Origin: a virus
DNA length: 64,000 nucleotides
Direction: 5' to 3' (one strand)
IMG/VR virus record: IMGVR_UViG_3300030390_000715
Coordinates: 1 to 64,000 of that record
In this document: positions 33,360 through 54,515 of the stretch, piece by piece
Layout: every line of letters begins with the position of its first letter
Numbering within the stretch: the first letter of the stretch is position 1
Position numbers and translations under genes: made by a program
The notes under the pieces: generated by a model
Databases searched by the model: none
What the model was told of the DNA's origin: nothing
What the model saw: only the letters and a program-made list of their open reading frames with translations

Positions 33360-33674
33360 ATGAAAGACAGAATTTTTAACTACGCCAAGACGCAAGACAC
33401 CAACGTGTTTTACTTCAACCGTGTAGCCGATGCCTTCACTTCTAAGTTAGATTGGTACGACAACGATGACGTTGATATGATCGTCGTTGATGCTACTAAC
33501 ACTTCGCAAGAGACTGACAACATCTTCTCTTTCCTTTACCAAACTGAACCTAACACTGATCAAGTATGGATGCGCTTCGCCAAAGAGTATGAAGTGGCTA
33601 ATGCTGATCTGATTCTTGATCCAACTAAACCCGCTTACATTATACAGACATTATACAATACAGGTGTGAAATAA
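33360..33674 (+). CDS. Hypothetical early protein
   Basis: ORF after promoter copy 2. Confidence 0.6.
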   Translation: MKDRIFNYAKTQDTNVFYFNRVADAFTSKLDWYDNDDVDMIVVDATNTSQETDNIFSFLYQTEPNTDQVWMRFAKEYEVANADLILDPTKPAYIIQTLYNTGVK

Positions 33675-33675
33675 T

Positions 33676-33855
33676 ATGAATATTGATGAAAGCTATGATT
33701 CAAAAGAATTTATGAATGATGTTTATGATAATTTGATGAAAAACCAGCAACACAATCCGTTGGATTTTTCAAAAACTGATTTTGATTCTTGTCTTGATCT
33801 TGATGATTTAACAATCACCATCGGAAATTTTAAACTTAAATTAATGCAGGTGTGA
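33676..33855 (+). CDS. AT-rich acidic 59-aa ORF flanked by a 23-bp direct repeat
   Basis: MNIDESYDSKEF...KLMQV; CAGGTGTGAAATAATATGAATAT at 33661 and 33847. Confidence 0.55.
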   Translation: MNIDESYDSKEFMNDVYDNLMKNQQHNPLDFSKTDFDSCLDLDDLTITIGNFKLKLMQV

Positions 33856-33861
33856 AATAAT

Positions 33862-34014
33862 ATGAATATGGAAATATGGTGTGCAGAGTATTACGACCAA
33901 TTCGGTAAGAGAATAATCGAATGGAATATTAACCCAGACCGAATCGAGGCTGAGCTAGTAGCTAAGGGTATAAAGGCTGAAACGATTGATGTATATGTAA
34001 AAGACGTTTCATAA
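33862..34014 (+). CDS. Hypothetical 50-aa protein (not in ORF track)
   Basis: MNMEIWCAEYYDQFG...KDVS. Confidence 0.5.
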   Translation: MNMEIWCAEYYDQFGKRIIEWNINPDRIEAELVAKGIKAETIDVYVKDVS

Positions 34015-34017
34015 AGG

Positions 34018-34077
34018 TGAAGAAAAAGCTTGACACCTTTATGGACTCTGATACAATAGTACTTCATTAACGAGATA
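34018..34077 (+). repeat. Early promoter cassette, copy 3 of 3
   Basis: 60 bp identical to 33287..33346. Confidence 0.92.
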
Positions 34078-34094
34078 ACACAGGGAATATTGAC

Positions 34095-34514
34095 ATGGCA
34101 TATGTAAGCAAGCAAGACAAATTAGACCTTACTCCAGGCATCAAAGCTGTCCTGAAGAAATATGATGTTAAAGGTACCATATCTGTTCAGCACCACAGCA
34201 CTCTTGTTGTTAAACTTAAATCTGGTGCAGTCGATTTCAACGCTGATAATATAGTCACTGAGGACATCTTCGGCGAGCCTGACACTAGAGATTACCACGA
34301 CAATCATACTATAAACACTTATCACATAGACCGTCGCTGGAAAGGTGAAGCTAAAGCCTTCCTCTATGAACTTAAAGAAGCTATGGAAGGCGAAGCCTTC
34401 TTCAACCACGACGATAGCATGACCGACTACTTCTTTCGTTCACATTACATCGATGTTAAAGTTGGTTATAACGCTCCGTACGCATGTACTGCCGCAGACT
34501 CAATTGCGGCTTAA
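34095..34514 (+). CDS. Conserved phage hypothetical protein, paralog of 32919..33302
   Basis: TPGIKAVLKKYDVKGT...FNHDDSMTDYF. Confidence 0.7.
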   Translation: MAYVSKQDKLDLTPGIKAVLKKYDVKGTISVQHHSTLVVKLKSGAVDFNADNIVTEDIFGEPDTRDYHDNHTINTYHIDRRWKGEAKAFLYELKEAMEGEAFFNHDDSMTDYFFRSHYIDVKVGYNAPYACTAADSIAA

Positions 34515-34542
34515 TAATTAATTATATAAATGAGGAAAGATC

Positions 34543-34947
34543 ATGGGTATGATAAACGGAAGATATACGACTAGTGCGGAAGAAATTCGAGTTCTTGAGA
34601 AAGAGCTTCATATGATGCGCCTTAAATTCGATAAAATACTTTCTTTTGTGGAAGAAGAATTTCCACTAGGGCGTCCTTTTGACTATATGGGGGTGGAAAT
34701 GTGTACGACTAGTATTGATGTTACACAGCCTCGAGGTGTCAAATCCTTTAGTAGGGAAGATGCCGTGAAAGTGCATTCTGAGGCAATGTCTGGTTTAGTT
34801 GAAATTCCTGAGGTTCGACCCGCATATAATGCTGAGGGTAAGATTGTATTAAATAGCGAATATTTTAATCCAGTGACTGGACTATTCACGCCTAAGTCTT
34901 TCGGCAGTGAGCATTTCACGCCACGATTCCTTGAAAGTGATGTGTAA
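34543..34947 (+). CDS. Hypothetical protein
   Basis: GAGG RBS; N-terminus MGMINGRYTT resembles the 32319 ORF (MGIMNGHRYTT). Confidence 0.6.
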   Translation: MGMINGRYTTSAEEIRVLEKELHMMRLKFDKILSFVEEEFPLGRPFDYMGVEMCTTSIDVTQPRGVKSFSREDAVKVHSEAMSGLVEIPEVRPAYNAEGKIVLNSEYFNPVTGLFTPKSFGSEHFTPRFLESDV

Positions 34948-35099
34948 CTTATGACTAGACGAGCTAAAATAATATTAATGTTCCCGATCTTAATCACGTG
35001 GGACGCATTCTATTTTCTGATTAAACAATTAACTCGACTTTGCGATTATATAGATATTGAGGGTGCAAAGATTATCGATAAAATATTGGAGAATGGCGT

Positions 35100-35915
35100 T
35101 TGAGAAAGCAGAATATAGTAGTAGCGGGATGGGGTGCGGTGGGTCAATGCGTAGGCGAAGCCTTGCGACCGGTCGCGAACATTCTCATTGACGATCCATA
35201 TCATGACAATCCAGATTATAGATCGACTCAACCCTCTGACTTGAATGATCTTGATGCGGTAATCATATGTGTAGCCACGCCGGCGAACGTGCATAATAAT
35301 AGTTGTGATACCAGTTTTGTAGAAGAAGTTATCGAAAAGTATGGAACAAAGCCAAGGTATCTACTCAAGTCGACCATCACCCCCGATTTCTTTGCAAAAC
35401 CTTATATGCTAGATGGTGTTGAATGTAAGATTACATATAGTCCAGAATATATTCGCGGCACGACAGGTAATGATTACGTCACTGATTTTAAAAACGCGAC
35501 CTTTGCAATATACGGTGGTGGTGAGATGCGTTGGTGGGACGAGTTGTTTCGTTTAGTCCAACCCAACATTAAAGATGTTCGGTACATGACTGCGGTACAG
35601 GCTTCTTTTACTAAGTATTTTCTTAATTGCTATTTAGCCGCTAAGACCACATTCTTTAACCACATGAAAGACATAGTTGATCATATGCCCTCTATGGGCG
35701 ATCCTGACTATGACATTATTATCGATGGTCTATGTTTAGATCCTAGAGTCAGTAAGTCACATACTCAAGTACCAGGACCAGACGGTAAGAAAGGATTTGG
35801 GGGACATTGTTTCCCAAAAGATGTATCAGCGATGTCATGGATGTCGACTGATCTGGGTGTAGAGAATAACTTCCTCGACACCGTATTAAACTTTAATGAT
35901 ACTTATAGAAAATAA
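35100..35915 (+). CDS. UDP-glucose/GDP-mannose dehydrogenase-like protein
   Basis: GWGAVG, CVATP, KST, SPE, KYFLN, GFGGHCFPKD. Confidence 0.85.
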   Translation: MRKQNIVVAGWGAVGQCVGEALRPVANILIDDPYHDNPDYRSTQPSDLNDLDAVIICVATPANVHNNSCDTSFVEEVIEKYGTKPRYLLKSTITPDFFAKPYMLDGVECKITYSPEYIRGTTGNDYVTDFKNATFAIYGGGEMRWWDELFRLVQPNIKDVRYMTAVQASFTKYFLNCYLAAKTTFFNHMKDIVDHMPSMGDPDYDIIIDGLCLDPRVSKSHTQVPGPDGKKGFGGHCFPKDVSAMSWMSTDLGVENNFLDTVLNFNDTYRK

Positions 35916-35927
35916 AAAGGAAACGAT

Positions 35928-36203
35928 ATGAAAAGCGAAAGTGGTATGTACGTAACGGATTATAATGTTGTATTAAAAGAGACCGAGGTTCAAAACCAAT
36001 CATCAGGTGGTATCATTCTATCAGGTGATGTATCAACTGGCAACAAGCCCGGTATCGTGGTCGCAGTAGGTCCTGACGTATCTAATCTAGTTCCAGGTCT
36101 GAAAGTCTACCTTGATTGGAAAGAAGCGATGCCCTTTGAATATAAAGGCGTTAAGATGGCTGTAGTTGATCAAGGTGCTATCAAGGTTATTTGCGATGAA
36201 TGA
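35928..36203 (+). CDS. GroES-like co-chaperonin
   Basis: SSGGIIL, GIVVAVGP. Confidence 0.8.
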   Translation: MKSESGMYVTDYNVVLKETEVQNQSSGGIILSGDVSTGNKPGIVVAVGPDVSNLVPGLKVYLDWKEAMPFEYKGVKMAVVDQGAIKVICDE

Positions 36204-36423
36204 TGCACCCTTTGCGGCTTCATTATATAATGACGAATCTGATAATGAATCAGCTACGCGATGGCATTTAAAAATGCTCATTGAGGATCTTGATGATATG
36301 GGCATTTACATTAATGCAAACGGAGAACAATACGACGAGGATACTCCTCAATTTAAAGAGATGGCGTATATACTTCGAAGGACTCTAGAATATGTTAGTA
36401 AAACAGGAGAGGTACATATCTAA
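36196..36423 (+). CDS. Hypothetical protein
   Basis: Translationally coupled ORF. Confidence 0.5.
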   Translation: MNDAPFAASLYNDESDNESATRWHLKMLIEDLDDMGIYINANGEQYDEDTPQFKEMAYILRRTLEYVSKTGEVHI

Positions 36424-36818
36424 TGATAGGAATTATTCGTAATGCGATGAAAACACCTGACGGAACGATTCTGGAGTCCAGACATCGACATGATTTTAAA
36501 TCACATAAAGACGCGAATGGCAAAGAATATATCATCGACGGTGGACAATCATATCTTCGAAGATCCGCGTGGGACGACCAAGTAGATTTGTCTGTATCGC
36601 TTATGGATGGTCATGATAGAGTTCGAAATGCATTAGAATGGGGAACATATGGTGTTACCGGAGACATGCCTCTGACGTATCTTACCCTTAAAGATATGGA
36701 TACTGATCACATTGAAACTATTCTAGAACTTCAAAATCCAGTGGCTTCGTTTAAAGAAGCGTTTAAAAACGAGCTATCATACAGAAAGGAAACGGGTCAA
36801 TGGCAAACAGCGATTTAG
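36423..36818 (+). CDS. Conserved phage hypothetical protein
   Basis: ESRHRHDF, IDGGQSYLRR, WGTYG. Confidence 0.7.
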   Translation: MIGIIRNAMKTPDGTILESRHRHDFKSHKDANGKEYIIDGGQSYLRRSAWDDQVDLSVSLMDGHDRVRNALEWGTYGVTGDMPLTYLTLKDMDTDHIETILELQNPVASFKEAFKNELSYRKETGQWQTAI

Positions 36819-37405
36819 TAAATAAAGCCCACATGAAAGTCGCCAATGTGTATGCGCAACTTAGTACAGCAAAGAAGTTGAAAGTTGGTTGTATTATCGT
36901 TAAAGACAATCGCGTCATATCAATTGGATATAATGGTATGCCAAGTGGGTGGAGCAACGAATGTGAGGAGCCATGGACAAGAGAAGGTAATCTAGTAACA
37001 AAGCCCGAAGTTCTTCATGCCGAAGCTAATGCAATAACTAAAGTAGCACGTAGTTCTGAGTCGTGCGAAGGCGCAACACTATATTGTACTCACGCACCAT
37101 GTATAGAATGTGCCAAGTTGATCGCGCAGTCGGGTATCAAGGAAGTGTATTATGAAACTCCTTATCTAGCCTCAAAAGGTTCGGGGCTAAATTTTCTCGT
37201 AGAATGTGACATTAATGTTGTCACTATTGAGCGACCGATTATGCCTCTGAACGAGAATGCGCTTGGAATGACTAATGACTTTGACAGGCTACAGCCAACA
37301 GGCTATAATGACTTTGACAGGCTACAGCCAACAGGCTATAATGACTTTGACAGGCTACAGCCAACAGGCTACAGCCATTATAAGAATGGCATCGCCCACA
37401 AATGA
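36800..37405 (+). CDS. cd: dCMP deaminase
   Basis: GYNG, HAEANA, PCIEC; C-terminal NDFDRLQPTGY x3. Confidence 0.92.
   Translation: MANSDLVNKAHMKVANVYAQLSTAKKLKVGCIIVKDNRVISIGYNGMPSGWSNECEEPWTREGNLVTKPEVLHAEANAITKVARSSESCEGATLYCTHAPCIECAKLIAQSGIKEVYYETPYLASKGSGLNFLVECDINVVTIERPIMPLNENALGMTNDFDRLQPTGYNDFDRLQPTGYNDFDRLQPTGYSHYKNGIAHK
37274..37372 (+). repeat. 33-bp tandem repeat x3 containing two perfect sigma70 promoters
   Basis: AATGACTTTGACAGGCTACAGCCAACAGGCTAT units; TTGACA-N17-TATAAT spans the unit boundaries. Confidence 0.9.
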
Positions 37406-37411
37406 AATTGG

Positions 37412-37440
37412 TTGACATGAGCCTAGAATATCATTATAAT
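37412..37440 (+). promoter_or_regulatory. Early sigma70 promoter
   Basis: TTGACA-N17-TATAAT. Confidence 0.75.
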
Positions 37441-37523
37441 GTACTCTTACCGACCATGGAGTCGCCTATGATATTCGTAATTAACAGAGATGCAATTGCA
37501 ATGACTTTTGGTTATATCGGTGC

Positions 37524-37961
37524 ATGTTTTATGATGGTATTCTAGGTGTGATATATTTTATTGAAGGAGGTGATCCTACATACAATTCGATTATAATGGT
37601 ATCTTATGTCGATCACTTGATGAAGAAGCTCGGCATTGAATGCATTCCTGATGTAGAAGTTAATATTAATATTACTAACGAAGCACTCGACTCCACTACC
37701 GATATGGGGCACACTTGGGGCGATAGTGACGAGATGAATATCACAATCACTACCAAGAATTGTAGCATTGTAGATCGAATGTTGACACTCGCCCATGAAA
37801 TGGTTCATGTCAAGCAGTACCTTCTAGGCGAGTTATCCACTGACAATGGTTACTTAGAATGGCATGGTGAACCTGCGAAAAAGTACAAGAAAGAATCAAG
37901 ACCACCATGGGAAGTAGAAGCCTATGCGTTGGAATCAGAATTGCTTAATACCTGGCAATAA
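37524..37961 (+). CDS. Zincin-like metallopeptidase (HExxH)
   Basis: LAHEMVHVKQY...PWEVEAY. Confidence 0.7.
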   Translation: MFYDGILGVIYFIEGGDPTYNSIIMVSYVDHLMKKLGIECIPDVEVNINITNEALDSTTDMGHTWGDSDEMNITITTKNCSIVDRMLTLAHEMVHVKQYLLGELSTDNGYLEWHGEPAKKYKKESRPPWEVEAYALESELLNTWQ

Positions 37962-38015
37962 AAAGTCTTAACATGTTGTTAAGCATTGAATGTAACATTA
38001 CCAAAGGAAAAGTTT

Positions 38016-38261: not shown

Positions 38262-38276
38262 CTATCAACACCGCGC

Positions 38277-38340
38277 GTGACCATTTCTTTTAGTCCGGTC
38301 ACTCGCGGTGCTTGACACCAAAGCTCCACTAATGTATAAT
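38277..38340 (+). promoter_or_regulatory. Palindrome GTGACC-N14-GGTCAC plus sigma70 promoter
   Basis: Same geometry as 46533..46595. Confidence 0.7.
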
Positions 38341-39694: not shown

Positions 39695-39920
39695 CGAAAC
39701 ACTGAACGCAATAGGTTATTTCTTTAGTTATAAAGGACTTGATAGGTGGAGTGGATGGGAAAGAGAGCAAAAGGTGATACTTCAAGAACTACCTACGCTA
39801 AAAATGTATCTGGATAAAGAGAAAGAGCTAGAGGATTTAAGGTTAGCTGTTAAGGACGAATTAAAAACTTATTACGAGAAACGTAGCCTGTCGCAATATA
39901 CGAGCGACCCCGAAGTCTAG
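39678..39920 (+). CDS. Hypothetical protein
   Basis: 80-aa coupled ORF. Confidence 0.55.
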   Translation: MMKLSSETLNAIGYFFSYKGLDRWSGWEREQKVILQELPTLKMYLDKEKELEDLRLAVKDELKTYYEKRSLSQYTSDPEV

Positions 39921-40147: not shown

Positions 40148-40182
40148 AAAATAGTAAAGCAACATTAAAAGGAAGCAAGCAA

Positions 40183-40317
40183 ATGAGTAGTTCAAGCATA
40201 CGACGAGGTGCAGTCAAAACGGTTGAATGGTGGAAACACTTGCGTAGTAGAAAACGAGCGCAAAATAAACTTGTGAGACAGGACGGTAAGGCGATAACAA
40301 AAGAGGAAAGCAAATGA
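40183..40317 (+). CDS. Basic 44-aa protein, short paralog (not in ORF track)
   Basis: MSSSSIRRGAVKTVEWWKHLRSRKRAQNKLVRQDGKAITKEESK. Confidence 0.6.
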   Translation: MSSSSIRRGAVKTVEWWKHLRSRKRAQNKLVRQDGKAITKEESK

Positions 40318-40499
40318 TAAAAATGAGTAGTTCAAGCATGCGACGAGGTGCAGTCAACCCGCCCGATCAACGTGGAGACTTACTAGAATGGTGGAAACAC
40401 TTGCGTAGTGACAAATATTTTAATCAATTGAATCAACGAGCGCAAAATAAACTTGTGAGACAGGACGGTAAGGCGATAACAAAGGAGGCAAGCAAATGA
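40314..40499 (+). CDS. Basic protein, long paralog with two in-frame inserts
   Basis: Near-identical to 40183..40317 outside two blocks. Confidence 0.6.
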   Translation: MIKMSSSSMRRGAVNPPDQRGDLLEWWKHLRSDKYFNQLNQRAQNKLVRQDGKAITKEASK

Positions 40500-40732
40500 G
40501 ATACATTGCCCGGTTTAGCGCGAGTAGAAGCGCATGGTGCGTTCATTGGCTTGAGGAGAGCAATGCCTCTAGTTATATTGTGGATTTGGATTCTGTTATA
40601 ATACAAAAGTATGGGACAAAAGAGTTGGCTGAAGCTAAGTGCTTGCAGTTGAACGAGGAGAAAGACAAATTCCTAGCAAGCCCATCTTTTGAACCCCAAC
40701 TTGAACTAGACCTAGAGGAAACAAGCGAATGA
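40496..40732 (+). CDS. Hypothetical protein
   Basis: Coupled ORF (ATGA overlap). Confidence 0.55.
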   Translation: MRYIARFSASRSAWCVHWLEESNASSYIVDLDSVIIQKYGTKELAEAKCLQLNEEKDKFLASPSFEPQLELDLEETSE

Positions 40733-40956
40733 ACGAATACATGAGAACAAGTGTGAAGTCAAAGTCATTTTGGGAAACAGTAATGCTGATAGTTCTACTC
40801 TGCCTCGTCATAAGCGTGGTTTATTCTGTTGCAAACAAAGAACCTCCGCAAAACAAGTGTATTGACGGAACTCTTTACCGACCAACCGATCAAGGTTACT
40901 GGCTGGCATACAATCAAAAGTGCAAGTCTTTACCGATAGAGGAGATAAGCGAATGA
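40729..40956 (+). CDS. Small membrane-anchored protein flanked by a 21-bp imperfect direct repeat
   Basis: TM helix plus Cys pair; TAGAGGA.A.AAGCGAATGAA at 40713 and 40937. Confidence 0.55.
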   Translation: MNEYMRTSVKSKSFWETVMLIVLLCLVISVVYSVANKEPPQNKCIDGTLYRPTDQGYWLAYNQKCKSLPIEEISE

Positions 40957-42967: not shown

Positions 42968-42996
42968 ACTTAATGAAACAAAATAAAGGTAACAGC

Positions 42997-43236
42997 ATGG
43001 AAAATTTAGACGCCGCAATAGATACTATACAGTCCATAGCTTCGGCGATTATAGACACCCAAGAAGCTATAGCCACTCTGCAAGAAGAAACCCTAATAAC
43101 GCTTCAATGTGCAGGCAGAGAGTGCTTAAGGCTTGAGACAGCTTTAAAGGAATTACAGCTAGAGTCCCAAGCTGATATTGATGATAGAAGATATTCACGT
43201 ATGGCGAACGTACCGTACTCCGAGGTAACAGCATGA
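42997..43236 (+). CDS. Hypothetical coiled-coil protein
   Basis: AGGTAACAGCATG junction; ends EVTA. Confidence 0.55.
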   Translation: MENLDAAIDTIQSIASAIIDTQEAIATLQEETLITLQCAGRECLRLETALKELQLESQADIDDRRYSRMANVPYSEVTA

Positions 43237-43433
43237 GCTATATTATAATTCAAGATAATTCTTATGATGGTAAAGACGTTAGATACTGTGATGATCGAAA
43301 GGAACTTATACGCGTACTTAAAGCTAAAGGCTATCATGGTTATGAGTGGCCTGTCGCTGATTTAGAAGTATATGCTGTGGGTAATGCCTTAACTATAAAT
43401 GAACTAACAACACTAAGAGAGGTGACAGCATGA
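43233..43433 (+). CDS. Hypothetical protein flanked by a 16-bp direct repeat
   Basis: GAGGTRACAGCATGAG at 43222 and 43419; ends EVTA. Confidence 0.55.
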   Translation: MSYIIIQDNSYDGKDVRYCDDRKELIRVLKAKGYHGYEWPVADLEVYAVGNALTINELTTLREVTA

Positions 43434-44578
43434 GAGATGATACGGCTCGAGGAGAAGCGACAGGAGAAGCGACTCCTATACTCTATAAAAAAGACTCGAA
43501 AGGCAAGACGCGAACTTGGCAAGCAGAATTTCAGTCGACCAATGGTCGCTATTTATGGCGAACCGTTAGCGGCATCGAAGGTGGCAAATTAGTGCGCTCT
43601 GGATGGAAGTCTGTAGAATGTAAGAACGTCGGTAAAATTAACGAGACTGATCAGAAAGGTCAAGCTATTAGCGAAATGTTCGCCAGCTATGAGTTGAAGG
43701 CTGAAGGGGAATATTTTAAAGATCGCAACGACATTGATAAGTACGACAAGATCAAGCCGATGTTAGCGTCAAAACACGAAGATCGCGAGTACGATTGGGC
43801 AACTGGTCAATACTTCTCTCAGCCTAAACTAGACGGTATTCGTTGTATCGCTCGTAAAGATGGATTGTGGTCACGCTCGGGTAAATTGATAGTTAGTATT
43901 CCACATATTAGCGAAGAGTTGAAACCTCTATTCGAGAAGTATCCTGATGCAATTCTTGACGGTGAACTTTACAACCATTGCCTGCGAGATAACTTTAACA
44001 AGATCACATCGCTTGTTCGTAAGACAAAGCCCACCTCCAATGATCTTGAAGAGACTGTGGAGTTAGTTCAATACCACGTTTACGATAAGGTCGATGCTGA
44101 CTTAACTTTTGTAGATAGAAACCTTTGGCTCAATAGTGAAGTACCGCAGTCAAAGGCAGTGAGATTAGTCACTACGGTTGAAGTCTCTGATAAAGATACG
44201 CTCGATATAATATACAGTGGATATCTTGAGGATGGCTATGAAGGTCAAATGATTAGAACTAATCTCGGTTACGAGAAGAGCAAGCGTTCGAAATCCCTTA
44301 TCAAGCGTAAAGAATTTTTCACTGATGAATACCCGGTGTGTCGAGTAGAAGAGGGCAACGGAAACTGGTCAGGTCACATCAAACGATTTGTACTGGTAAC
44401 AGAAAGTGGTGTAGAGTTCGGTGCTGGTGTAAGAGGCAATCAAGCCACGCTAAGTAGCATGTATCAGAACAAAGAAACGCCTGATTGGTGTACGTTACGA
44501 TACTTCACGCCAACGCCAGACGGCATACCGAGATTCCCAGTAGTTATTGATTGGGGTTATGGAAAAAGGGAAGACTAG
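43430..44578 (+). CDS. ATP-dependent DNA ligase
   Basis: KPMLA, QPKLDGIRC, LDGELY, YEGQMIR, KRK, GIPRFP. Confidence 0.92.
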   Translation: MRDDTARGEATGEATPILYKKDSKGKTRTWQAEFQSTNGRYLWRTVSGIEGGKLVRSGWKSVECKNVGKINETDQKGQAISEMFASYELKAEGEYFKDRNDIDKYDKIKPMLASKHEDREYDWATGQYFSQPKLDGIRCIARKDGLWSRSGKLIVSIPHISEELKPLFEKYPDAILDGELYNHCLRDNFNKITSLVRKTKPTSNDLEETVELVQYHVYDKVDADLTFVDRNLWLNSEVPQSKAVRLVTTVEVSDKDTLDIIYSGYLEDGYEGQMIRTNLGYEKSKRSKSLIKRKEFFTDEYPVCRVEEGNGNWSGHIKRFVLVTESGVEFGAGVRGNQATLSSMYQNKETPDWCTLRYFTPTPDGIPRFPVVIDWGYGKRED

Positions 44579-46505: not shown

Positions 46506-46532
46506 CTCTACTCTCAAACACCCTCCTCTACA

Positions 46533-46595
46533 GTGACCCAGTCTTTTGATTGGGTCACTCGTTTCTGTTGACAATAACTTCCAATACGATATAAT
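46533..46595 (+). promoter_or_regulatory. Palindrome/hairpin GTGACC-N14-GGTCAC plus sigma70 promoter
   Basis: AGTGACCCAGTC-TTTT-GATTGGGTCACT then TTGACA-N16-TATAAT. Confidence 0.7.
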
Positions 46596-46966: not shown

Positions 46967-46983
46967 ATGATTTTAAAAAAGTG

Positions 46984-47030
46984 TTGACAACCACCGTCGA
47001 TATGATATAATAGCACTTCATTAACCAGAG
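46984..47030 (+). promoter_or_regulatory. Early promoter cassette (CACTTCATTAAC variant)
   Basis: TTGACA-N16-TATAAT-AGCACTTCATTAACC. Confidence 0.75.
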
Positions 47031-47040
47031 CGAGATTGAC

Positions 47041-47438: not shown

Positions 47439-47725
47439 TGATAAAAGATGATGTAGAACTTTGCAAATGGTTACGCGATAATTCTAGCGGTATTTATCGC
47501 CCAAGCGCACTAGCGGCTAACAGGATAGAAGAGTTGTTAGTCCTAGTGTCAAAACTAGACGATATTTTCATAGCTCTAGAGAAGCTAAAAAACGATGACG
47601 AAGAAGGTGTATATTGGGGTCGTGATCAGGATATCTATAACATTGCTATTGACGATGTTATTCATTTTATAAGGGGAGAGTACAGTAGAGGGTTTTTTAA
47701 CAACTCGGAGAAAAATGATGACTAG
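47435..47725 (+). CDS. Hypothetical protein
   Basis: GGAG RBS, coupled. Confidence 0.55.
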   Translation: MMIKDDVELCKWLRDNSSGIYRPSALAANRIEELLVLVSKLDDIFIALEKLKNDDEEGVYWGRDQDIYNIAIDDVIHFIRGEYSRGFFNNSEKNDD

Positions 47726-47903
47726 AACTACCAAAAAAAATCCAAAGGACTTTAATGGCGGTGGTTGTCGAGAGTATTGGTCAAATAGACCACACAACAA
47801 AGGTGGAAGTGCCAGCATAGGTAAATACCAAAAGAGCAGAACCGCAAGAACGGAAAGGCGATTAGCCAAAGCAAAAACAGGAGAAAGTGATGGAACTAAT
47901 TAG
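47715..47903 (+). CDS. Basic hypothetical protein
   Basis: EYWSNRP...RTERR. Confidence 0.55.
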   Translation: MMTRTTKKNPKDFNGGGCREYWSNRPHNKGGSASIGKYQKSRTARTERRLAKAKTGESDGTN

Positions 47904-48141
47904 AGACGAAGAGATACTAAAGTTTTCGAAACAGAATTTAATCTTTACAAGGGATAATTCTGGGGAACTTGAGCTGTCAAGAGTGCTATGTGATGTTGAT
48001 AATGTTGCCCTTAGTGTTGGTTATGTTGGCGGTAATGTTGGTTATGTTGGCGGTAATGTTGATAATGTTCACGGTGGTGTTCGTTATGTTGAAGGTAATG
48101 TTGGCGGAAAGACAAACAGGGAGAATTTGAAGCCAGAGTAA
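47887..48141 (+). CDS. Hypothetical protein with VGGNV repeats
   Basis: 21-bp repeats GTTGGTTATGTTGGCGGTAAT. Confidence 0.5.
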   Translation: MMELIRDEEILKFSKQNLIFTRDNSGELELSRVLCDVDNVALSVGYVGGNVGYVGGNVDNVHGGVRYVEGNVGGKTNRENLKPE

Positions 48142-48222
48142 GAAAGTTGCCCATTCCTTTCACTTTTGCTAAGACATACGAAACAGTTCTGGAGAGCTTA
48201 AACTAACTAATCTGAGGAGAGA

Positions 48223-48477
48223 GTGATGAAGGAATATGTAATAGGAACAGCAGTTTTTATAGTCAAAAGAGGGTCAATGACTTGTCGTGCGCTTGATCCA
48301 GTTGCGTATTTTTCAAGACGTAGCAAAGCCGAGGCTTTTATCGCTAAAGATCGGAAATTCTATAATGGCGATTTGGGGGTTTCTGCCAAAGATTATGTGT
48401 ATCAAATAGAAATCATTCCACTAGACAATACATATTCGGAGATATCAGCGTCGCAGATACCTTATAGGAGAAAGTGA
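48223..48477 (+). CDS. Hypothetical protein
   Basis: AGGAGAGAGTGATG junction. Confidence 0.55.
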   Translation: MMKEYVIGTAVFIVKRGSMTCRALDPVAYFSRRSKAEAFIAKDRKFYNGDLGVSAKDYVYQIEIIPLDNTYSEISASQIPYRRK

Positions 48478-48479
48478 AG

Positions 48480-48644
48480 ATGACAAATGAAAATAATGAA
48501 ACAAATGCAACTGAATTTGATAACTGCACATTTACTGGCGTAGAAATTGAATTAAGGTGTCTTAAAACAGCCCTTGAAAATATGTTAGTAGCGGTGAAGA
48601 AGATTTCGACCTTTAATAATAACGAAGATGATAGATGGCGATGA
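48480..48644 (+). CDS. Hypothetical 54-aa protein (not in ORF track)
   Basis: MTNENNETNATEFDNCTFTGVEI... Confidence 0.45.
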   Translation: MTNENNETNATEFDNCTFTGVEIELRCLKTALENMLVAVKKISTFNNNEDDRWR

Positions 48645-48667
48645 CGCCCGAAAAACAGGAGAAAGTG

Positions 48668-49036
48668 ATGCGAGACATTAAATTTAGGCAGTGGGATAAA
48701 AGAAATAAACGGTTTCATTATTTTGGGTTTACTTTAGACGATTACTTCGAATTTACCTCGCCAGTAAGCCCCTGTAGGAAAAATTACCCAGTATCACAAT
48801 ACACTGGCTTAAAGGACTCAAAAGGCGTTGAGATTTATGAGGGTGATGTTGTCAACTCAAGACATCTTTCTCTGGCTGAGGTGGTTTTCTCAAAGAAAGC
48901 CGCGAAATTTTGCATACAAATCTATCGAATGAATCCTTACAAAGAAATGACTAAGCGAGTTTATAGTATTTTGTCGTGCGAAGTTGTAGGCAACATCTAC
49001 GAAAACCCTGAGCTATTAGGAGAAAGTAATGAATAA
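48668..49036 (+). CDS. YopX family protein
   Basis: MRDIKFRQWD, QYTGLKDSKGVEIYEGD, EVVGNIYENPELL. Confidence 0.88.
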   Translation: MRDIKFRQWDKRNKRFHYFGFTLDDYFEFTSPVSPCRKNYPVSQYTGLKDSKGVEIYEGDVVNSRHLSLAEVVFSKKAAKFCIQIYRMNPYKEMTKRVYSILSCEVVGNIYENPELLGESNE

Positions 49037-49229
49037 GGCCATATTGGAGCCAAATGTGGAGCGTACTCCAAGCGATCTCGAACTGCTTAGGCAAGGAAAA
49101 ATTAGAGCAGTCGGAAAAGTCAGGGCCAGAAAATTAAAGCGCAAAGGAGTTTCATGTTGGTGGTCACCTGAATTAAATAGCCGAGTAAGGGCAGGATTAA
49201 TTAAAGGAGAAAGTGATGCGAGAAATTAA
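49029..49229 (+). CDS. Basic hypothetical protein
   Basis: Between AGGAGAAAGT junctions. Confidence 0.5.
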   Translation: MNKAILEPNVERTPSDLELLRQGKIRAVGKVRARKLKRKGVSCWWSPELNSRVRAGLIKGESDARN

Positions 49230-49566
49230 ATTTAGAGCGTGGCATAGAGGTGCTGAGGAATTTTGTGAGGGCTTAACATCTAATATGTTTCAGTGGAGAG
49301 AAGATGGGCAACCCATAACACTTATGCAATACACCGGACTCAAAGATGCTAATGGTGTTGAGATGTACGAGGGTGATGTTCTTACTGCACAGAAAGGCTC
49401 TTACTCTGGGAAGTCCCTACCTATCAAGGGGGCATTAGAAGTCCACGGAATACATTGGTTTATTAACACAGGTGATATCCTAACGTATCTAGGGGGCGTC
49501 AGAAACATAAAAGTAATTGGCAACATATACGAAAACCCAGAACTAATCCGAGGAGATACAAAATGA
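49216..49566 (+). CDS. YopX family protein
   Basis: MREIKFRAW, MQYTGLKDANGVEMYEGD, VIGNIYENPEL. Confidence 0.88.
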   Translation: MREIKFRAWHRGAEEFCEGLTSNMFQWREDGQPITLMQYTGLKDANGVEMYEGDVLTAQKGSYSGKSLPIKGALEVHGIHWFINTGDILTYLGGVRNIKVIGNIYENPELIRGDTK

Positions 49567-49844
49567 TTGAACTAGAACAGATTGCAAAACAAGCCAAATC
49601 GTCAATAGTTGCCGCTGAAAAGCTTAGTGCATTGGACGATCTTCGTGTCGAGTACCTTGGTAAGAAAGGTAGGCTAACAGGCCTTCTTAAAGGTCTAGGC
49701 AGATTGTCGGCTGAAGAACGCCCGGCAGAGGGCGCTAAAATAAATGATGTCAAACAAAGCCTACAAGAGCTTATTGGGCAGCGAAAAGCTTATCTTGAGA
49801 GTATCGACCTGGATGCCACTTATACGCAAACCCAGAACTATTAG
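49563..49844 (+). CDS. Stand-alone N-terminal coiled-coil domain of phenylalanyl-tRNA synthetase alpha subunit (captured pheS fragment)
   Basis: ALDDLRVEYLGKKGRLT.LLKGLGRLSAEERPAEGAKINDVK...RKAYLE matches the proteobacterial PheS N-terminus (E. coli ALDNVRVEYLGKKGHLT...PEERPAAGAVINEAK). Confidence 0.85.
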   Translation: MIELEQIAKQAKSSIVAAEKLSALDDLRVEYLGKKGRLTGLLKGLGRLSAEERPAEGAKINDVKQSLQELIGQRKAYLESIDLDATYTQTQNY

Positions 49845-49850
49845 GAGAAA

Positions 49851-50057
49851 GTGATGGAAAACCTACGTTTAACTTATATTAATTTTTACACTTACAAAGG
49901 GTGGACTTTTGAATGGAAAAAAGACTGGCCTGTTGGCCCTTGGCCTTGTAAAAAAGACTTGGAGTTAAGGGCAAAAGCAGGTAGAAAATTCTGGGATATG
50001 TTTCAAGAATTCTCCGAATTAAGCGACGAGGAACAAGAACAGTACAGGGTTTTTTAA
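49851..50057 (+). CDS. Hypothetical protein
   Basis: GWTFEW..GPWP.KKD. Confidence 0.6.
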   Translation: MMENLRLTYINFYTYKGWTFEWKKDWPVGPWPCKKDLELRAKAGRKFWDMFQEFSELSDEEQEQYRVF

Positions 50058-50190
50058 CAACTAGGAGAATGTGCTTATTTCATGCCCCGTCAGGTCTAAA
50101 GTGTGGTTATAGTGTTGTAAATGTAATATTTGTTTGCTATAATGATCTTGTCATCGGGAGATGGCGCAACTATCTTAAAGGAATACAAAA

Positions 50191-50460
50191 ATGAATACTG
50201 CAAAAGACTTTGAAGTACTAATTACGTATAAGAGCGGACACAGTGAGATAGCTATAATTCCACTGACCCAGTACTGCTCGGAAATAGAAACACTACAGGG
50301 CAAACTGATGAAATACTGCATAAACACGAAAGACTATGAAGTACTAATTACGTATAAGAGTGGACACCGTGAGATAGCTATAATTCCACTGACCCAGTAC
50401 TCCTCAGAAATAGAAACACTACAGTCAGAAGGTCGGCTCGTAAGTATGGAGATTTTATAA
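50191..50460 (+). CDS. Hypothetical protein with internal tandem duplication
   Basis: 50203..50298 repeated at 50329..50424. Confidence 0.6.
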   Translation: MNTAKDFEVLITYKSGHSEIAIIPLTQYCSEIETLQGKLMKYCINTKDYEVLITYKSGHREIAIIPLTQYSSEIETLQSEGRLVSMEIL

Positions 50461-50461
50461 A

Positions 50462-50734
50462 ATGATTATTGATTTTGTAAAAAAAGCTGAAAAAGCTCTA
50501 GGCAAAAAGCGCATGAAGTTAGTCTCTTCAATTACACATGAGGCAGACATTATGGTGGTTAGCTTAAAACACCCATATATGCATACCCTTTATGACGAGA
50601 TTAGTTGGTTATATGGTGACGATTATGAGGATACTCAAGTTACAGTATTTAAGGATCTTTTAGACTGGTTTGACCTATATTATATCCGAAAAGTTACGGT
50701 TGAAAAATTGAAAAGCATAGGCGTATCTAAGTAA
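50462..50734 (+). CDS. Hypothetical protein
   Basis: GGAG RBS, 90 aa. Confidence 0.55.
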   Translation: MIIDFVKKAEKALGKKRMKLVSSITHEADIMVVSLKHPYMHTLYDEISWLYGDDYEDTQVTVFKDLLDWFDLYYIRKVTVEKLKSIGVSK

Positions 50735-50900
50735 GAAAAATTTAGGTTTTAACCAACCGCACTTTCGGGGCATATCAAAGGAATAGTTGAATGAGAGAAA
50801 GTCGCCTAATAAAGGAATATTTTTCGTAAAACGCTTGACGGATGTATTGAAAACATTTATAATACTTGTATTGATTAACTGACTAGAGCGAGAAAATATT

Positions 50901-51155
50901 ATGACTTTAAAAGCATTGTTTGAATTTCATCCTTCTGAGTGTTTGATTATTGAAGACAGTATGTTCGTCTTGTTAGCGAATCGCGCTATCGCAATTCAAG
51001 TTTGTCAAGATAAAACTTTTGTTGTTAGTGTTTGGCACGAAGATAAGTTGATGATCGAAGAAGTCGCGACTACGCGTTCATTAGATAGAGCCATGCGAAT
51101 CGCGGCTACTTATAACGTAACTCCATTAATTGACGAAGATGGTTGCCTATCATAA
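50901..51155 (+). CDS. Hypothetical early protein
   Basis: Promoter TTGACG..TATAAT at ~50835; AGAGCGAGA leader. Confidence 0.55.
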   Translation: MTLKALFEFHPSECLIIEDSMFVLLANRAIAIQVCQDKTFVVSVWHEDKLMIEEVATTRSLDRAMRIAATYNVTPLIDEDGCLS

Positions 51156-51222
51156 GTTTAAAAAGGGGTTGACAACTACTGCCAACCCGATAGAATAACA
51201 CTTCATTAGACAAAAGGAACAA

Positions 51223-51471
51223 TTGAAAATGAGAAAGCGAAGTGGTCGAAAAAACCAAAGCCGCGATTTTCCTACTCGTGCTAACCCTGTAGCTAAGAAC
51301 TTTGTGTTTGCCTGTGTAAACACCGACAATGTTGATGAAATTTGCTCTGATTGTTTTGTGGACACTCTTGAATATGCCCTTGAGATTCGAGAAGATCATC
51401 AAACTACATATTCGCTTATGTGGGACGGTGAAGATGTTAACACTGCCGTTATTATTGGAGAATTATCATGA
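51223..51471 (+). CDS. Hypothetical early protein
   Basis: Promoter at ~51169 with ACTTCATTAG motif. Confidence 0.55.
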   Translation: MKMRKRSGRKNQSRDFPTRANPVAKNFVFACVNTDNVDEICSDCFVDTLEYALEIREDHQTTYSLMWDGEDVNTAVIIGELS

Positions 51472-51845
51472 GTAATATTTGTTATTCGGAGCAGAAGGAT
51501 CTGGTGTTATGCAAGACGAGAGGTATGCTTTACTTCATTCCAAAGAGCGAAGTGTCAAGAATATATATACCTAAGTCTACCACTCTTGACCAAATTGCTA
51601 TAAGGCTAGCATCTCTACAACTTTCAGAATTCGCGGTCGATGCCAGAGACCCTAAAAATCCTTATGTCCTTAAGAATCGTCACACCGGAGATGTGGGCAC
51701 TAAAATATTCATAGGCATTTCAAAGCCCACAAACACAGCAACCTTTTATGCGAAAATGTCCAACACATTTTTCCAAGTTCCGTTTACACCGAAAAAAGAG
51801 TTTGACGAACCACACCACATGGACTATAATAGGTCCATAGACTAA
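51468..51845 (+). CDS. Hypothetical protein
   Basis: Coupled ORF, GGAG RBS. Confidence 0.55.
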   Translation: MSNICYSEQKDLVLCKTRGMLYFIPKSEVSRIYIPKSTTLDQIAIRLASLQLSEFAVDARDPKNPYVLKNRHTGDVGTKIFIGISKPTNTATFYAKMSNTFFQVPFTPKKEFDEPHHMDYNRSID

Positions 51846-51866
51846 CCAAAAGAGAAGATATTCATT

Positions 51867-52055
51867 ATGTATTTAATTGTTGATAAAAATAGTGGCTTTC
51901 CTGTCACGCAAGACCTTCTGACTACGGAATCTGAGGCTGAGAAGTATAAAGCCAAGCATTGTGGAGATGTTGATTGTGTAGTTGTTTCTGAGAGTAATTA
52001 TAACGAAGGGTTCTTTCATAGACGATGGCCCATGACTGCCACAAGGAGTCTATAG
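51867..52055 (+). CDS. Hypothetical protein
   Basis: Promoter at ~51801. Confidence 0.5.
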   Translation: MYLIVDKNSGFPVTQDLLTTESEAEKYKAKHCGDVDCVVVSESNYNEGFFHRRWPMTATRSL

Positions 52056-52056
52056 T

Positions 52057-52437
52057 ATGAAGTACCAATCTCATAGTGAAATACCAATCCAGTACCGCAA
52101 AATAATTCTTAGTGCAGTTTCCGAGAAACGCGTCAATAAAGTTGATATTATAAAATGTAATGATATCATCGAAGAGCATGATCGACACGAAGCGCAAATG
52201 GCACCACTTCGAAAGTTTCAGATTACCTATCAGAAAGGAAAGACTCGAAAGGTCTATGATTACAATAACGCTTCTGATGCTCTAACGACCCTTGACCAGT
52301 TAATTGGATTTGATGAACGCGATCCTGACGTTCTAGCTGTAGTGAAACAAGGTGATAGAATAGTACGTGGTTACTTTAAAGGCGAGTGGTATATTCCTGA
52401 GCCGCGTGATGCAATTAAATATGTTAATAGGGTGTAA
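52057..52437 (+). CDS. Hypothetical protein
   Basis: AGGAG RBS, 126 aa. Confidence 0.6.
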   Translation: MKYQSHSEIPIQYRKIILSAVSEKRVNKVDIIKCNDIIEEHDRHEAQMAPLRKFQITYQKGKTRKVYDYNNASDALTTLDQLIGFDERDPDVLAVVKQGDRIVRGYFKGEWYIPEPRDAIKYVNRV

Positions 52438-52442
52438 ATGAA

Positions 52443-52697
52443 ATGACAATGTTAAAAAATATAGCTATCATCACCAAAACCTGTGATGCAACTTTCGACG
52501 AGGCTTCTTTAAGGTCTGTTTACGATTTAGTTAAACGTATGGGATTAGATAGATGTGTCGAACTAGAAGAGTCTAATGATGGACAAAAATACACTATGGA
52601 AATGATGGAAGCGTTTCGCGGACCAAGGGCTGAAATAAGAAACCGCTCTCATGGGTCCCTGATAGAAGTGATTCATGTGCAAAGTAATCTATCATGA
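52443..52697 (+). CDS. Hypothetical protein
   Basis: 84-aa ORF. Confidence 0.5.
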   Translation: MTMLKNIAIITKTCDATFDEASLRSVYDLVKRMGLDRCVELEESNDGQKYTMEMMEAFRGPRAEIRNRSHGSLIEVIHVQSNLS

Positions 52698-53335
52698 ACA
52701 GTAACTTAGGGAATATTATATTAATTGACTGCGACGGTGTTCTGCTTAATTGGGAACACTCGTTCGTCCAATTCATGGAGACCTATTCAGATTTGAAACG
52801 ACTTCCTGATGCAGATAAGCATTATAATATCGCCAAACAATATGGCATCAGCAATAAATCTGGCAAATATTGGGCTGAGAGATTCAACACTAGTGCGGCA
52901 ATAGGTAGTCTACCACCGTTCCGTGATGCTATTAAGTATGTCCGCAAACTCCACGAAGAACATGGCTACGTGTTTCACTGCATTACTTCTATGAGCGATG
53001 ATAAGTACGCTGTTCAACTTAGAGTTGAAAACCTAGAGCGCGTATTTGGTAAGGGCATATTCGAGAGGATTGTTTGTCTTCCAGTAGGTGCTGATAAGAC
53101 CGATACACTATTCGAATATAAAGATAGCGACTATTACTGGATTGAAGATAAGGTTGCCAATGCTATGGTCGGATTAGATTTGGGGCTAGAACCTATTATC
53201 GTCGAGCATGTTAACACCGCTAATCAAGTAGAAGACGTGGAGAGTTTATTTCAATTATTTCAATCTCTCGGTAATTGTTTCTATGCTGTTAAATGGAAAG
53301 ACATCTACAACCACATTACTGGAGAAGAATCATGA
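52694..53335 (+). CDS. HAD-superfamily nucleotidase (T4 30.2-like)
   Basis: DCDGVL, CITS, K, WIEDK. Confidence 0.8.
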   Translation: MNSNLGNIILIDCDGVLLNWEHSFVQFMETYSDLKRLPDADKHYNIAKQYGISNKSGKYWAERFNTSAAIGSLPPFRDAIKYVRKLHEEHGYVFHCITSMSDDKYAVQLRVENLERVFGKGIFERIVCLPVGADKTDTLFEYKDSDYYWIEDKVANAMVGLDLGLEPIIVEHVNTANQVEDVESLFQLFQSLGNCFYAVKWKDIYNHITGEES

Positions 53336-53595
53336 GACTTATAAACAATTTACCTGAAAACTCGGATATAAAAGCGATTGATATTAGTTCCGAGCGAAAA
53401 CGCAAGTATTATTACCCGATGATCGACGGGAATGATGCTTACGATATCACCATAGATCGTCCTAAAATGGTGTATATCACACCCGAAGGCAATCATCGCG
53501 TTCTTGATGATTACGGTTGGGTCAGTCGTATTCCACCGGGTTGGTCTGTACTTAGTTGGTTACCTGGAACTGATCAACCTCACGTAGTAGCCTAA
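53332..53595 (+). CDS. Hypothetical protein
   Basis: DISSE..R.Y, GNHRVLD..G. Confidence 0.6.
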   Translation: MRLINNLPENSDIKAIDISSERKRKYYYPMIDGNDAYDITIDRPKMVYITPEGNHRVLDDYGWVSRIPPGWSVLSWLPGTDQPHVVA

Positions 53596-53660
53596 AAGTT
53601 TGACAATACTAACGCGTTCGTATATAATGATTATCTATTAATGAGACGAGGTTGAGAAAA

Positions 53661-54257
53661 ATGCAAAAATGGTCTAGTGTATTAGAATCGTTTGTTTGGG
53701 TTCTTTTGTCGTGTGTCGTGTTGACGGCGATAATAGGTTCTTATTATGACTTTAGAAAAGATAACGTAGTCGAACCGCCCGTGATTATATTCGAAGAAGG
53801 TGCGTTCGAACGAGAAGAGAACGTCGAGGTGCAGAAAGATGTACCAGACAACGACCAATTAGAATGTTTAGCCTTGAATACATATCACGAGAGTAGAGGG
53901 GAATCTATCGCAGGGCAATTAGCTGTCGCTCAAGTTGTTATGAATCGAGTCAAGAGCGAACGATTCCCTAATAGTGTTTGCGAGGTAGTCAAACAAGGTC
54001 CCACTTACGAAAACTGGAAAGGGAATGAGCTTCCGGTATTAAACAAGTGTCACTTTTCTTGGTACTGCGACGGTAAGAGTGACAACTACAATCCTAAGAC
54101 ATTAGATACTATACGAGATTTAGTGGTAGCCGTTATGGTCGATTCGCTAGATTACACCGATGGTGCGACTCACTATCACGCAGATTATGTTGACCCGTGG
54201 TGGGCAAAACATTACGAGGTCACTACACAAATTGATGACCACATATTTTACAAATAA
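53661..54257 (+). CDS. SleB-like cell wall hydrolase with N-terminal TM
   Basis: CLALNTYHESRGE, VMNRV, FSWYCDG, GATHYHA, HIFY. Confidence 0.92.
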   Translation: MQKWSSVLESFVWVLLSCVVLTAIIGSYYDFRKDNVVEPPVIIFEEGAFEREENVEVQKDVPDNDQLECLALNTYHESRGESIAGQLAVAQVVMNRVKSERFPNSVCEVVKQGPTYENWKGNELPVLNKCHFSWYCDGKSDNYNPKTLDTIRDLVVAVMVDSLDYTDGATHYHADYVDPWWAKHYEVTTQIDDHIFYK

Positions 54258-54300
54258 GTGAGAGTAAACTATAACCAATACTAAAAAGGGATTAAACAGC

Positions 54301-54486
54301 ATGAAAGCACATGATTTATATAGCGCAAAATGTAAAGCCGTCGAGCATTTTAAAGTACCCAAGAGTAAAAAACACCTTGTCGCAATCGAACCGGCATACG
54401 AAAACGAAACGGATGAATTTTGTGCTGGGTGGATTGCATTCTACAACCAAAAGAAAGTTGAGATTCTAAAAGAGATAACAGCATGA
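54301..54486 (+). CDS. Hypothetical protein flanked by AACAGCATGAAA repeat
   Basis: Ends EITA; repeat at 54295 and 54476. Confidence 0.5.
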   Translation: MKAHDLYSAKCKAVEHFKVPKSKKHLVAIEPAYENETDEFCAGWIAFYNQKKVEILKEITA

Positions 54487-54515
54487 AAATCAATAAATTG
54501 CTTAGACTATAACCA

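Follow-up and report, generated by a model that had tools for sequence, protein, structure and literature searches.

Short gene-junction repeats around small genes in a putative T4-like marine phage, and their possible exchange as cassettes without an integrase

The first 64 kb (64,000 nucleotides) of the 152,753-bp virus record IMGVR_UViG_3300030390_000715 (G000), referred to here as the window, contain an interval, 33661..54487, in which small accessory genes lie between direct repeats of the short sequence at which one gene ends and the next begins. An initial annotation, made from the sequence alone, had listed seven such repeat pairs, and all seven are present at the positions and with the identities it gave: 33661/33847 (23/23), 40168/40481 (19/20), 40713/40937 (19/21), 43222/43419 (15/16, with a partial copy at 42986), 47873/48651 (20/20), 49526/49821 (19/20), and 54295/54476 (12/12). 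The matching protein tails that it described for unrelated genes are also there (SEVTA*/REVTA*/KEITA* and EETSE*/EEISE*). The occurrence of repeats at gene junctions is thus confirmed, and their interpretation as integrase-free capture of gene cassettes is partly supported. We consider it reasonably probable that general recombination at short junction linkers lets this phage gain, lose, duplicate, and swap small cassettes of one gene each.

The record, with an estimated completeness of 91%, has a guanine-plus-cytosine (GC) content of 40.3% and carries 219 plus-strand open reading frames (ORFs) over its whole length; nearly all transcription of the window is on that strand, and the source runs holding the sequence are labelled marine metagenomes. 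Its tentative assignment to the T4-like phages, for which genes other than the structural ones were considered, was made because it encodes homologues of UvsX (a RecA/UvsX-like recombinase at 28550-29233, plus strand; PF00154, 41.9 bits), UvsY (11436-11846; PF11056, 82.5 bits), and RegA (21861-22223; PF01818, 144.9 bits). The part between 32 and 52 kb is rich in ORFs of 40-130 codons, contains on the plus strand 15 strong promoters of sigma-70-like type (matching at 11 or more of the 12 hexamer positions), and includes an ATP-dependent ligase gene (43430-44578) whose nearest named relatives, from Phaeobacter and Ruegeria phages, are 48% identical. These gene contents suggest that the interval is a hyperplastic region of early genes in a marine phage of the T4 type. 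When 33-55 kb was compared with a phage collection, megablast returned zero matches and a sensitive-mode search eight weak partial ones only; Rfam had no match in 32-56 kb of the window. The best IMG/VR match to the ligase was just 64%, and close relatives were therefore sought by exact junction pattern and among metagenome contigs.

The similarity of adjacent junctions exceeds what their composition would predict. Taking 48 nt around each stop codon and scoring the longest exact word common to two junctions, we found words of at least 10 nt in 9 of 218 neighbouring pairs, compared with 0.61% of 21,736 distant pairs; at thresholds of at least 12 and at least 15 nt the counts were 4/218 vs 0.12% and 2/218 vs 0.014%. 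When the order of the junctions was shuffled 20,000 times, the mean counts were 1.54, 0.39, and 0.08, and the observed counts were reached in 0, 12, and 60 shuffles, respectively. Since this control preserves the composition of the Shine-Dalgarno (SD) sequence and of the ATGA stop/start overlap, the excess is not due to composition, which was the check that the initial annotation had proposed for its repeat counts. Six of the nine neighbouring pairs sharing at least 10 nt fall inside the interval, and one of the other three is a promoter repeat.

The seven pairs are heterogeneous, being made up of a tandem duplication, tails of YopX genes, and recurring junction families (GAGGTRACAGCATGA, AGGAGAAAGTGATG). 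The statement that the repeats differ from locus to locus is only partly right, 42986, 43222, 43419, and 54472 forming one family and seven junctions at 47878-49856 another. GGTRACAGCATGA occurs, with up to two mismatches, at 9 sites against 2.47 expected, the best of them (0-1 mismatch) at 42988, 43224, 43421, and 54474, and CAGGAGARWGTGATG has 8 matches against 0.43 expected, seven of them within 47878-49856. No plus-strand promoter-like site overlaps the repeats at 33661, 33847, 40168-40937, 43222, 43419, or 54476, and a terminator scan, which overall gave 13 terminator-like sites against 12.3 expected, found no stem-loop at the junction repeats or at the promoter repeats P1-P3; composites of a stem-loop and a promoter occur only at 32247-32284 and 46532-46595.

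The clearest case is a 59-aa ORF (g59, 33676..33855, plus strand) without a Pfam match, which at 27.8% GC is as AT-rich as had been claimed. It is enclosed by two plus-strand copies of a repeat, J2. The left copy (33657..33686; 23 nt exact at 33661-33683 and 28/30 over the whole span) covers the end of a 104-aa ORF, the SD, and the start of g59, and the right copy (33843..33872) spans from the end of g59 across the SD into the start of a 50-aa ORF. An exact search with the 23-nt repeat retrieved the IMG/VR contigs L088 and L089, and the ligase led to the metagenome contigs L090 (=L091) and L092; identity to the window is 97-99% throughout, over 21.5-36 kb for L088/L089, 33.0-55.2 kb for L090, and 34.8-53.5 kb for L092. 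Contigs from sequencing runs (X2, X4, X6, X7) were compared as well, and the parts of the window that they leave uncovered, including 33.6 kb, were given no weight. The 186-bp unit 33661-33846 is missing from L088, L089, and L090, three independent contigs in which a single J2 copy remains, its left flank being that of the first copy and its right flank that of the second, with a gap that can be slid over 23 exact nucleotides. The one-copy, gene-less allele that was to be looked for at this pair therefore exists. L090 and L091 are two copies of a 21-kb stretch, separated by 154,366 bp on a single metagenome contig of 308,986 bp, which suggests an assembled concatemer and a genome near 154 kb for this relative.

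Among 19 pattern matches in viral contigs, two (L170 and L171) proved to carry relatives of g59. The body of the gene (33675/6-33842) is 85.7% and 86.8% identical to them at the DNA level, and the identity is confined to that segment, which is also the one lacking in the empty alleles; J2 itself is absent from both contigs. In all three contexts the gene is a composition outlier (28-33% GC vs 40-42%). The two g59 junctions in the window match each other at 22/24 positions, and match the 3' junction of g59 in L170 and L171 at only 15-16/24; moreover, the second codon of g59 agrees with that of the downstream gene and not with that of the g59 homologues. As judged from these comparisons, the recipient's own junction appears to have been duplicated around g59. 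In L171, the homologue lies between copies of TTTGTAGAGGTGACAG[C/T]ATGA that match at 22/23 positions.

A second unit is the 61-aa ORF at 54301..54486 (plus strand), which ends in the linker GAGATAACAGCATGA. Segment 54258-54475 of the window corresponds to a different segment of 396 nt in L090, both alleles being bounded by (G)GTRACAGCATGA, and the ORF of the window and its alternative in L090 both start after ...ACAGCATGA and end at ...TAACAGCATGA. The view of this ORF as an exchangeable unit is thereby supported, one gene having been replaced by another at the same junction motif. Two further contigs, L172 and L173, match it at 86.9% DNA identity, over 54296-54486 only, and in L172 the homologue sits between exact 15/15 copies of the linker GAGGTGACAGCATGA; a protein 61% identical to the 54301 product is encoded in L174 without a flanking repeat. 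By blastn and tblastx, L170, L171, and L172 each share one gene with the 152.7-kb record and nothing else.

For the 92-aa gene that lies upstream of g59 in L171, viral contigs yielded 24 relatives, one of them its own contig (L293), and eight of the 24 (L294-L301) were examined. Homology to L171 ends at the last base of the linker in L294, L295, L296, and L297 and two bases later in L298, and different genes follow the linker in these five; three more distant relatives are without the linker. Clustering of the ORFs revealed a second pair of filled and empty alleles, F5-linker-F12-linker-F1 in L294 and F5-linker-F1 in L295, and F12 is found again in L172, downstream of the 54301 homologue. The differing orders in L294, L295, and L172 show unrelated small ORFs joined in varied order at one junction sequence.

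We suggest that the general recombination and replication machinery of the phage would act here without a dedicated integrase. What the data show are the repeats, their non-random adjacency, the empty, filled, and replaced alleles, the presence of the same cassettes in unrelated contigs, and the lack of tyrosine and serine recombinase genes; we infer that the repeats are the exchange sites, as we do the enzymes at work and the direction of each event. Its substrates would be the SD-spacer-overlapping stop/start junctions of 15-30 nt and, in addition, conserved coding ends of paralogues (YopX) and 60-nt early-promoter repeats. A cassette would usually bear a linker at its 3' end and sit downstream of a similar linker, and the two copies therefore look like direct repeats. 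Recombination between the two copies would leave an empty site with one copy, and recombination between linkers of different genomes would swap the neighbouring gene. Cassettes of the 54301 and F12 type may be products of homologous exchange, their repeats being simply two linkers. For g59, whose donor and recipient junctions differ, two joins are likely, the first at the start codon (ATGA.TAT) and the second immediately before the SD, either of which could be a crossover or a template switch; as the recipient SD precedes the start, such joins would duplicate the interval between them and so resemble a target-site duplication.

Several observations weigh against this account. The mechanism is not demonstrated, the alleles being known from assembled contigs, with no circles or recombination intermediates among them. 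Just one of the seven flagged pairs (33661/33847) has a clean single-copy empty site, so that the empty-site test proposed for all pairs succeeded there and gave no clean single-copy site for the others, and the filled g59 allele is known only from the window itself. The two junctions of g59 in L170 match each other at only 14/24 positions. Distances among the window, L088/L089, and L090 (pairwise differences 11/17/21 on the left and 13/5/11 on the right) give no root and no direction for the g59 event. The 3' junction of the 54301 cassette agrees at 22/24 positions between genomes and at 17-19 within a genome, and that of F12 at 18 between genomes and 16 within; being closer between than within genomes, the 3' junction travels with the gene. 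This contradicts the reading of the repeats as target-site duplications for the 54301 and F12 cassettes, and agreement of left and right junctions, true for g59 in the window and in L171, was rejected as a general rule, failing for L170, the 54301 cassette, and F12. The claim that a foreign gene is inserted with duplication of the local junction may apply to g59 (22/24). Two of the seven pairs are products of duplication or paralogy. The genes g40729 and g43233 are present in L090 and L092 alike. The window and its relatives differ by five simple indels that measure 150 nt or more, and only two of them have long repeats (23 and 49 nt), the remaining three having 4, 6, and 8 exact nucleotides at their endpoints. 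Finally, only a weak neighbour effect is seen across 43 non-redundant, more distant ligase loci (at least 12 nt shared by 9 of 1,368 neighbouring pairs vs 0.13% of distant pairs), and those 9 pairs include several promoters and one overlap caused by ORF calling.

It could also be that the repeats reflect function alone, junction motifs such as GAGGUGACAGCAUGA being favoured for translation initiation or coupling, or bound as operators by a regulator (RegA, for instance), with mosaic boundaries falling at gene ends because selection removes other recombinants. We regard this as rather unlikely to be the whole explanation, though much is compatible with it: GAGGTGA makes a strong SD and ATGA an overlap of stop and start, RegA is encoded in the record, and the motif families cluster by region. 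An exact 15-mer linker has at least 123 occurrences in at least 118 loci; of the 123 listed, 96 coincide with a stop/start overlap that joins open frames 40 codons or longer, and the contigs have 35-70% GC (0.40-0.64 at the 5th-95th percentile). Its sharing across lineages may reflect convergent use of a good SD-ATGA junction and not descent, a further point against exchange, and we rejected this wide sharing as evidence for common descent, as use of the junction spans contigs of such different GC. What function alone leaves unexplained is the identity of spacer and flanking bases (23/23, and 22/23 in L171), the single-copy empty site, and the extra copies at the same locus. At least two copies of the 14-nt core stand at neighbouring junctions in 5 of the 118 loci listed, and for a second family in 1 of the 117 listed; as a control, the core of the other family was looked for in each set, with 0 copies in about 1.05 Mb (1.06 Mb for the 118 loci).

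Tandem duplication followed by divergence would make each repeat pair the last conserved remnant of two gene copies, the junction being kept by selection for ribosome binding and coupling while the bodies diverge; as a general explanation it seems to us improbable. The process itself is evident in the window. A 182-bp unit, 40253..40434 (plus strand), is a recent example, tandemly duplicated and giving rise to ORFs 40183-40317 and 40314-40499, which are 65% identical; L090, L092, and the strain abundant in run X7 have the unit only once, without 40253-40434, with a gap that slides over 49 nt, and the similarity at 40168/40481 extends over 37, 24, and 72 nt. This pair, claimed as a captured cassette, is instead a tandem gene duplication. 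The YopX paralogues, 35% identical with conserved ends, and the 12-nt and 30-nt tandem duplications at or near junctions of relatives fit the same process, and smaller tandem events in the relatives measure 9, 12, 30, and 33 nt. Against its generality, g59 is unlike its neighbours though the repeat is 23/23, its body is 86-87% identical to genes of unrelated contigs, and its GC is 12 points under that of the genome. At the sensitivity of BLASTP (E 0.01) there is no match between the neighbours g59/g50, 40496/40729, and 42973/43233, and the ORFs between identical linkers in L270, L282, L187, L203, L171, and L172 show no paralogy (local BLOSUM62 scores of at most 31).

A dedicated, unrecognised system that inserts promoterless ORFs exactly at stop/start junctions and duplicates the recipient's SD-to-start interval (20-30 bp) we would put down as a long shot; were it real, newcomers would be instantly coupled in translation and precisely excisable, and insertion after insertion would have left the junction families of many contigs as its traces. 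A related reading, a mobile element whose unrecognised phage or host enzyme inserts single-ORF cassettes with true target-site duplications of about 20-30 bp, is very doubtful. It draws on the recipient's junction on both sides of g59 (22/24), with foreign homology limited to the insert, and on a 182-nt insert in L092 (5069-5250), located at 39901 of the window inside the 3' end of an 80-aa ORF, that is, at a non-junction site, with an exact repeat of 8 nt within an imperfect 31-nt direct repeat; this insert lacks any ORF longer than 9 codons and is without a match in Rfam. Three units are also near-equal in size, namely this insert (182 nt), the duplication (182 nt), and g59 (186 nt). Against it, and in agreement with the remark that no integrase is recognisable, PF00589 (tyrosine recombinases) gave 0 matches in the 152,753-bp record, where the positive control matched in 14 of 14 genomes, and PF00239 (serine recombinases and resolvases), PF01844 (HNH), and PF01541 (GIY-YIG) had no match there either, DDE transposase families not having been searched. 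An inverted-repeat scan found the insert ends to be without terminal inverted repeats and the three cassettes without palindromes at their ends, no attC model having been run. The bracketed ORFs, at 44-93 aa, are all below 100 aa, other cassettes bring their own 3' linker, and several whole-gene indels have a repeat of only 4-8 nt.

An assembly artefact, in which the filled alleles would be chimeric joins at common short words, is hardly credible: the filled g59 allele and the 182-bp duplication are indeed known only from the record of the window, and run contigs X2 and X4 break near the latter, but a chimeric path would still require g59 between J2 copies in some genome, repeat-flanked homologues exist on the independent contigs L170, L171, L172, L173, and L294, and every reading frame and stop/start overlap is intact.

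Exchange of cassettes at junction linkers, the reading that we prefer, has a precedent in the shuffling of PeSLs (promoter-early stem-loops), regulatory cassettes defined by a promoter and a stem-loop, in T4-type phages. According to Arbiol et al. 2010 (PMC2839356) and Comeau et al. 2014 (PMC4122927), ORFans lie there between copies of the cassette, and the former presents the system as having no integrase, with excised mini-circles demonstrated by inverse polymerase chain reaction; an SD and a start codon form the end of each PeSL, and the mapped mini-circle crossovers fall between the SD/ATG and the -10 box (PMC2839356). In both cases, small ORFans of a hyperplastic region are flanked by a short regulatory sequence, a close relative has one copy and no gene, and no integrase is involved, general T4-type recombination being invoked. 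The definition of a PeSL-shuffled gene, a differential ORFan for which a relative has one copy, describes g59 and F12 (L294 vs L295); for g40729 and g43233 no relative with one copy and no ORF was seen. The window also has PeSL-like linkers, namely 60-nt sigma-70-type early-promoter repeats at 33287-33346 (plus strand, 100% identical to 34018-34077), 32621-32680 (88%), and 46972-47031 (63%), with promoters at 32633, 33299, 34030, and 46984. Unlike PeSLs, however, most repeats described here are 15-30-nt SD-spacer-stop/start junctions inside operons, with neither promoter nor stem-loop, partly encoding the C-terminal tail of the upstream protein (EVTA*), and one insertion (g59) appears to duplicate the recipient's own junction. 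PeSL mini-circles were seen experimentally, whereas the present cassettes are known from assembled contigs alone. Since the promoter and stem-loop that define PeSLs are lacking, we class the junction repeats as functional analogues that stand outside the PeSL family. In an abstract-level survey of the literature on cassette capture mediated by junctions or SD sequences, the PeSL papers alone were relevant, and no junction-only version was found.

The arrangement also resembles the modular evolution of Botstein and Campbell, which, as summarised in PMC2839356, has modules exchanged at short conserved linkers that place a gene for expression; here, by contrast, each module is one gene of 40-100 codons, and it is the translation signal that serves as linker. 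Integron cassettes are similar in being arrays of promoterless single genes with a recurring short sequence at their 3' ends, and differ in that the phage has no IntI-type tyrosine recombinase (0 matches to PF00589) and its linkers are translation signals.

For T4, Mosig et al. in 1998 and Singer et al. in 1982, as cited in PMC2839356, reportedly described deletions and duplications at short direct repeats. The present indels, with endpoint repeats of 4-49 nt, and the tandem duplications of 12, 30, 33, and 182 nt are of this kind; that literature concerns loss or duplication of resident DNA and does not extend to a foreign gene body that comes to lie between duplicated junctions. The acquisition of many small accessory genes by large lytic phages is only partly explained, PeSL shuffling covering promoter-flanked ORFans in a few pairs of coliphages and vibriophages. 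The same logic appears to operate with only a 15-30-nt translation junction, inside operons of uncultured marine phages and with cassettes found in unrelated contigs. If this were general, any two strong SD-ATGA junctions would be a potential exchange point, the common C-terminal tails of unrelated small phage proteins would be explained, and a simple rule would be at hand to spot recently moved genes in metagenomes.

The other loci of the interval show how varied the changes are. A segment holding a 74-aa ORF (32692-32916), 32676..32902 on the plus strand, is missing from L088 and L089, both ends of this indel lying in purine-rich SD regions with an exact repeat of only 4 nt, and L090 has 232 nt extra inside ORF 47435, with an exact repeat of 6 nt. 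Replacements in L090 affect 47676-48980 (323 nt instead), 49236-49510 in the middle of the second YopX gene (293 nt, with N- and C-terminal motifs retained), and 49826-50789 (790 nt). Five consecutive plus-strand junctions of one family (ARAGGARRMAAGCRAATGA) stand at 40168, 40299, 40481, 40714, and 40937 (40168..40956), the last of which has a 12-nt tandem duplication in L092. Three copies of the linker GAGGTRACAGCATGA at 42986, 43222, and 43419 (42986..43433, plus strand) bracket an 87-aa and a 66-aa ORF upstream of the DNA ligase. Empty sites were not found for 40713/40937 and 43222/43419, as g40729 and g43233 are kept in both covering relatives, and g43233 has no relative among the viral contigs searched. 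At 43218, the window is without 57 nt (19 codons, in frame) that are present in L090, L092, and run X7; this gap affects the 87-aa ORF at its 3' end, directly ahead of the linker, and has an endpoint repeat of 2 nt.

Seven plus-strand junctions of the family AGGAGARWGTGATG at 47878..49856 accompany an array of small ORFs and YopX paralogues that is mostly replaced in L090 and L092. For 47873/48651 there is no clean empty site: L092 joins the upstream gene via GGAGAAAGTGATG straight to a YopX gene, which is a different paralogue. The first YopX paralogue of the window lies at 48668..49036 (plus strand; PF09643, 4e-19) and the second at 49216-49566 (PF09643). Their conserved N- and C-terminal coding motifs are, on the evidence of the alignments, mosaic breakpoints, and the pair 49526/49821, taken earlier for the borders of a captured cassette, consists of coding 3' ends of YopX genes (IYENPELL...), with a third copy at 48985. 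The ORF it was said to enclose, 49563-49844, does match the N-terminal domain of PheS (PF02912, 4e-23), as the initial annotation had it, and an out-of-frame YopX 3' tail (49810..49861, plus strand) is fused to its end. L090 diverges from the window exactly at 49825, after a common TTATAC microhomology, a breakpoint that may be read as a recombination scar. Two kinds of joint seen in run contigs were set aside, the 'go-back' joints 49542/49545 to 49216 in X6 since they look like other YopX arrays, and the joint 47675 to 49210 in X7 since it rests on a side of 33 nt.

Some minor observations concern the same region and the rest of the record. The free-standing PheS-N-domain ORF at 49563-49844 (93 aa) is conserved at 94% in L090. 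At 37273-37371, a 33-nt unit is present in three exact tandem copies, and a perfect promoter (TTGACA-17-TATAAT) arises wherever two units meet; the unit occurs just once in L090 and in the run X7 strain, and the variant in L092 is 49 nt shorter. Blocks of 96 nt, 126 nt apart and 95% identical, occupy 50203-50424 inside ORF 50191-50460 and amount to an internal protein duplication, and four overlapping repeats with a 21-nt period at 47990-48104, in ORF 47887-48141, indicate a repetitive heptad-like protein. Beyond the window, a second cluster of AGGAGAAAGT-type and CAACAACTAGGAGA junctions at 89.2-90.6 kb of the record resembles another hyperplastic region with the same junction family. Distant junctions at 57.3, 110.2, and 138.2 kb of the record have GTATAAATAGA-type words in common, which presumably resemble the T4 late-promoter core TATAAATA.

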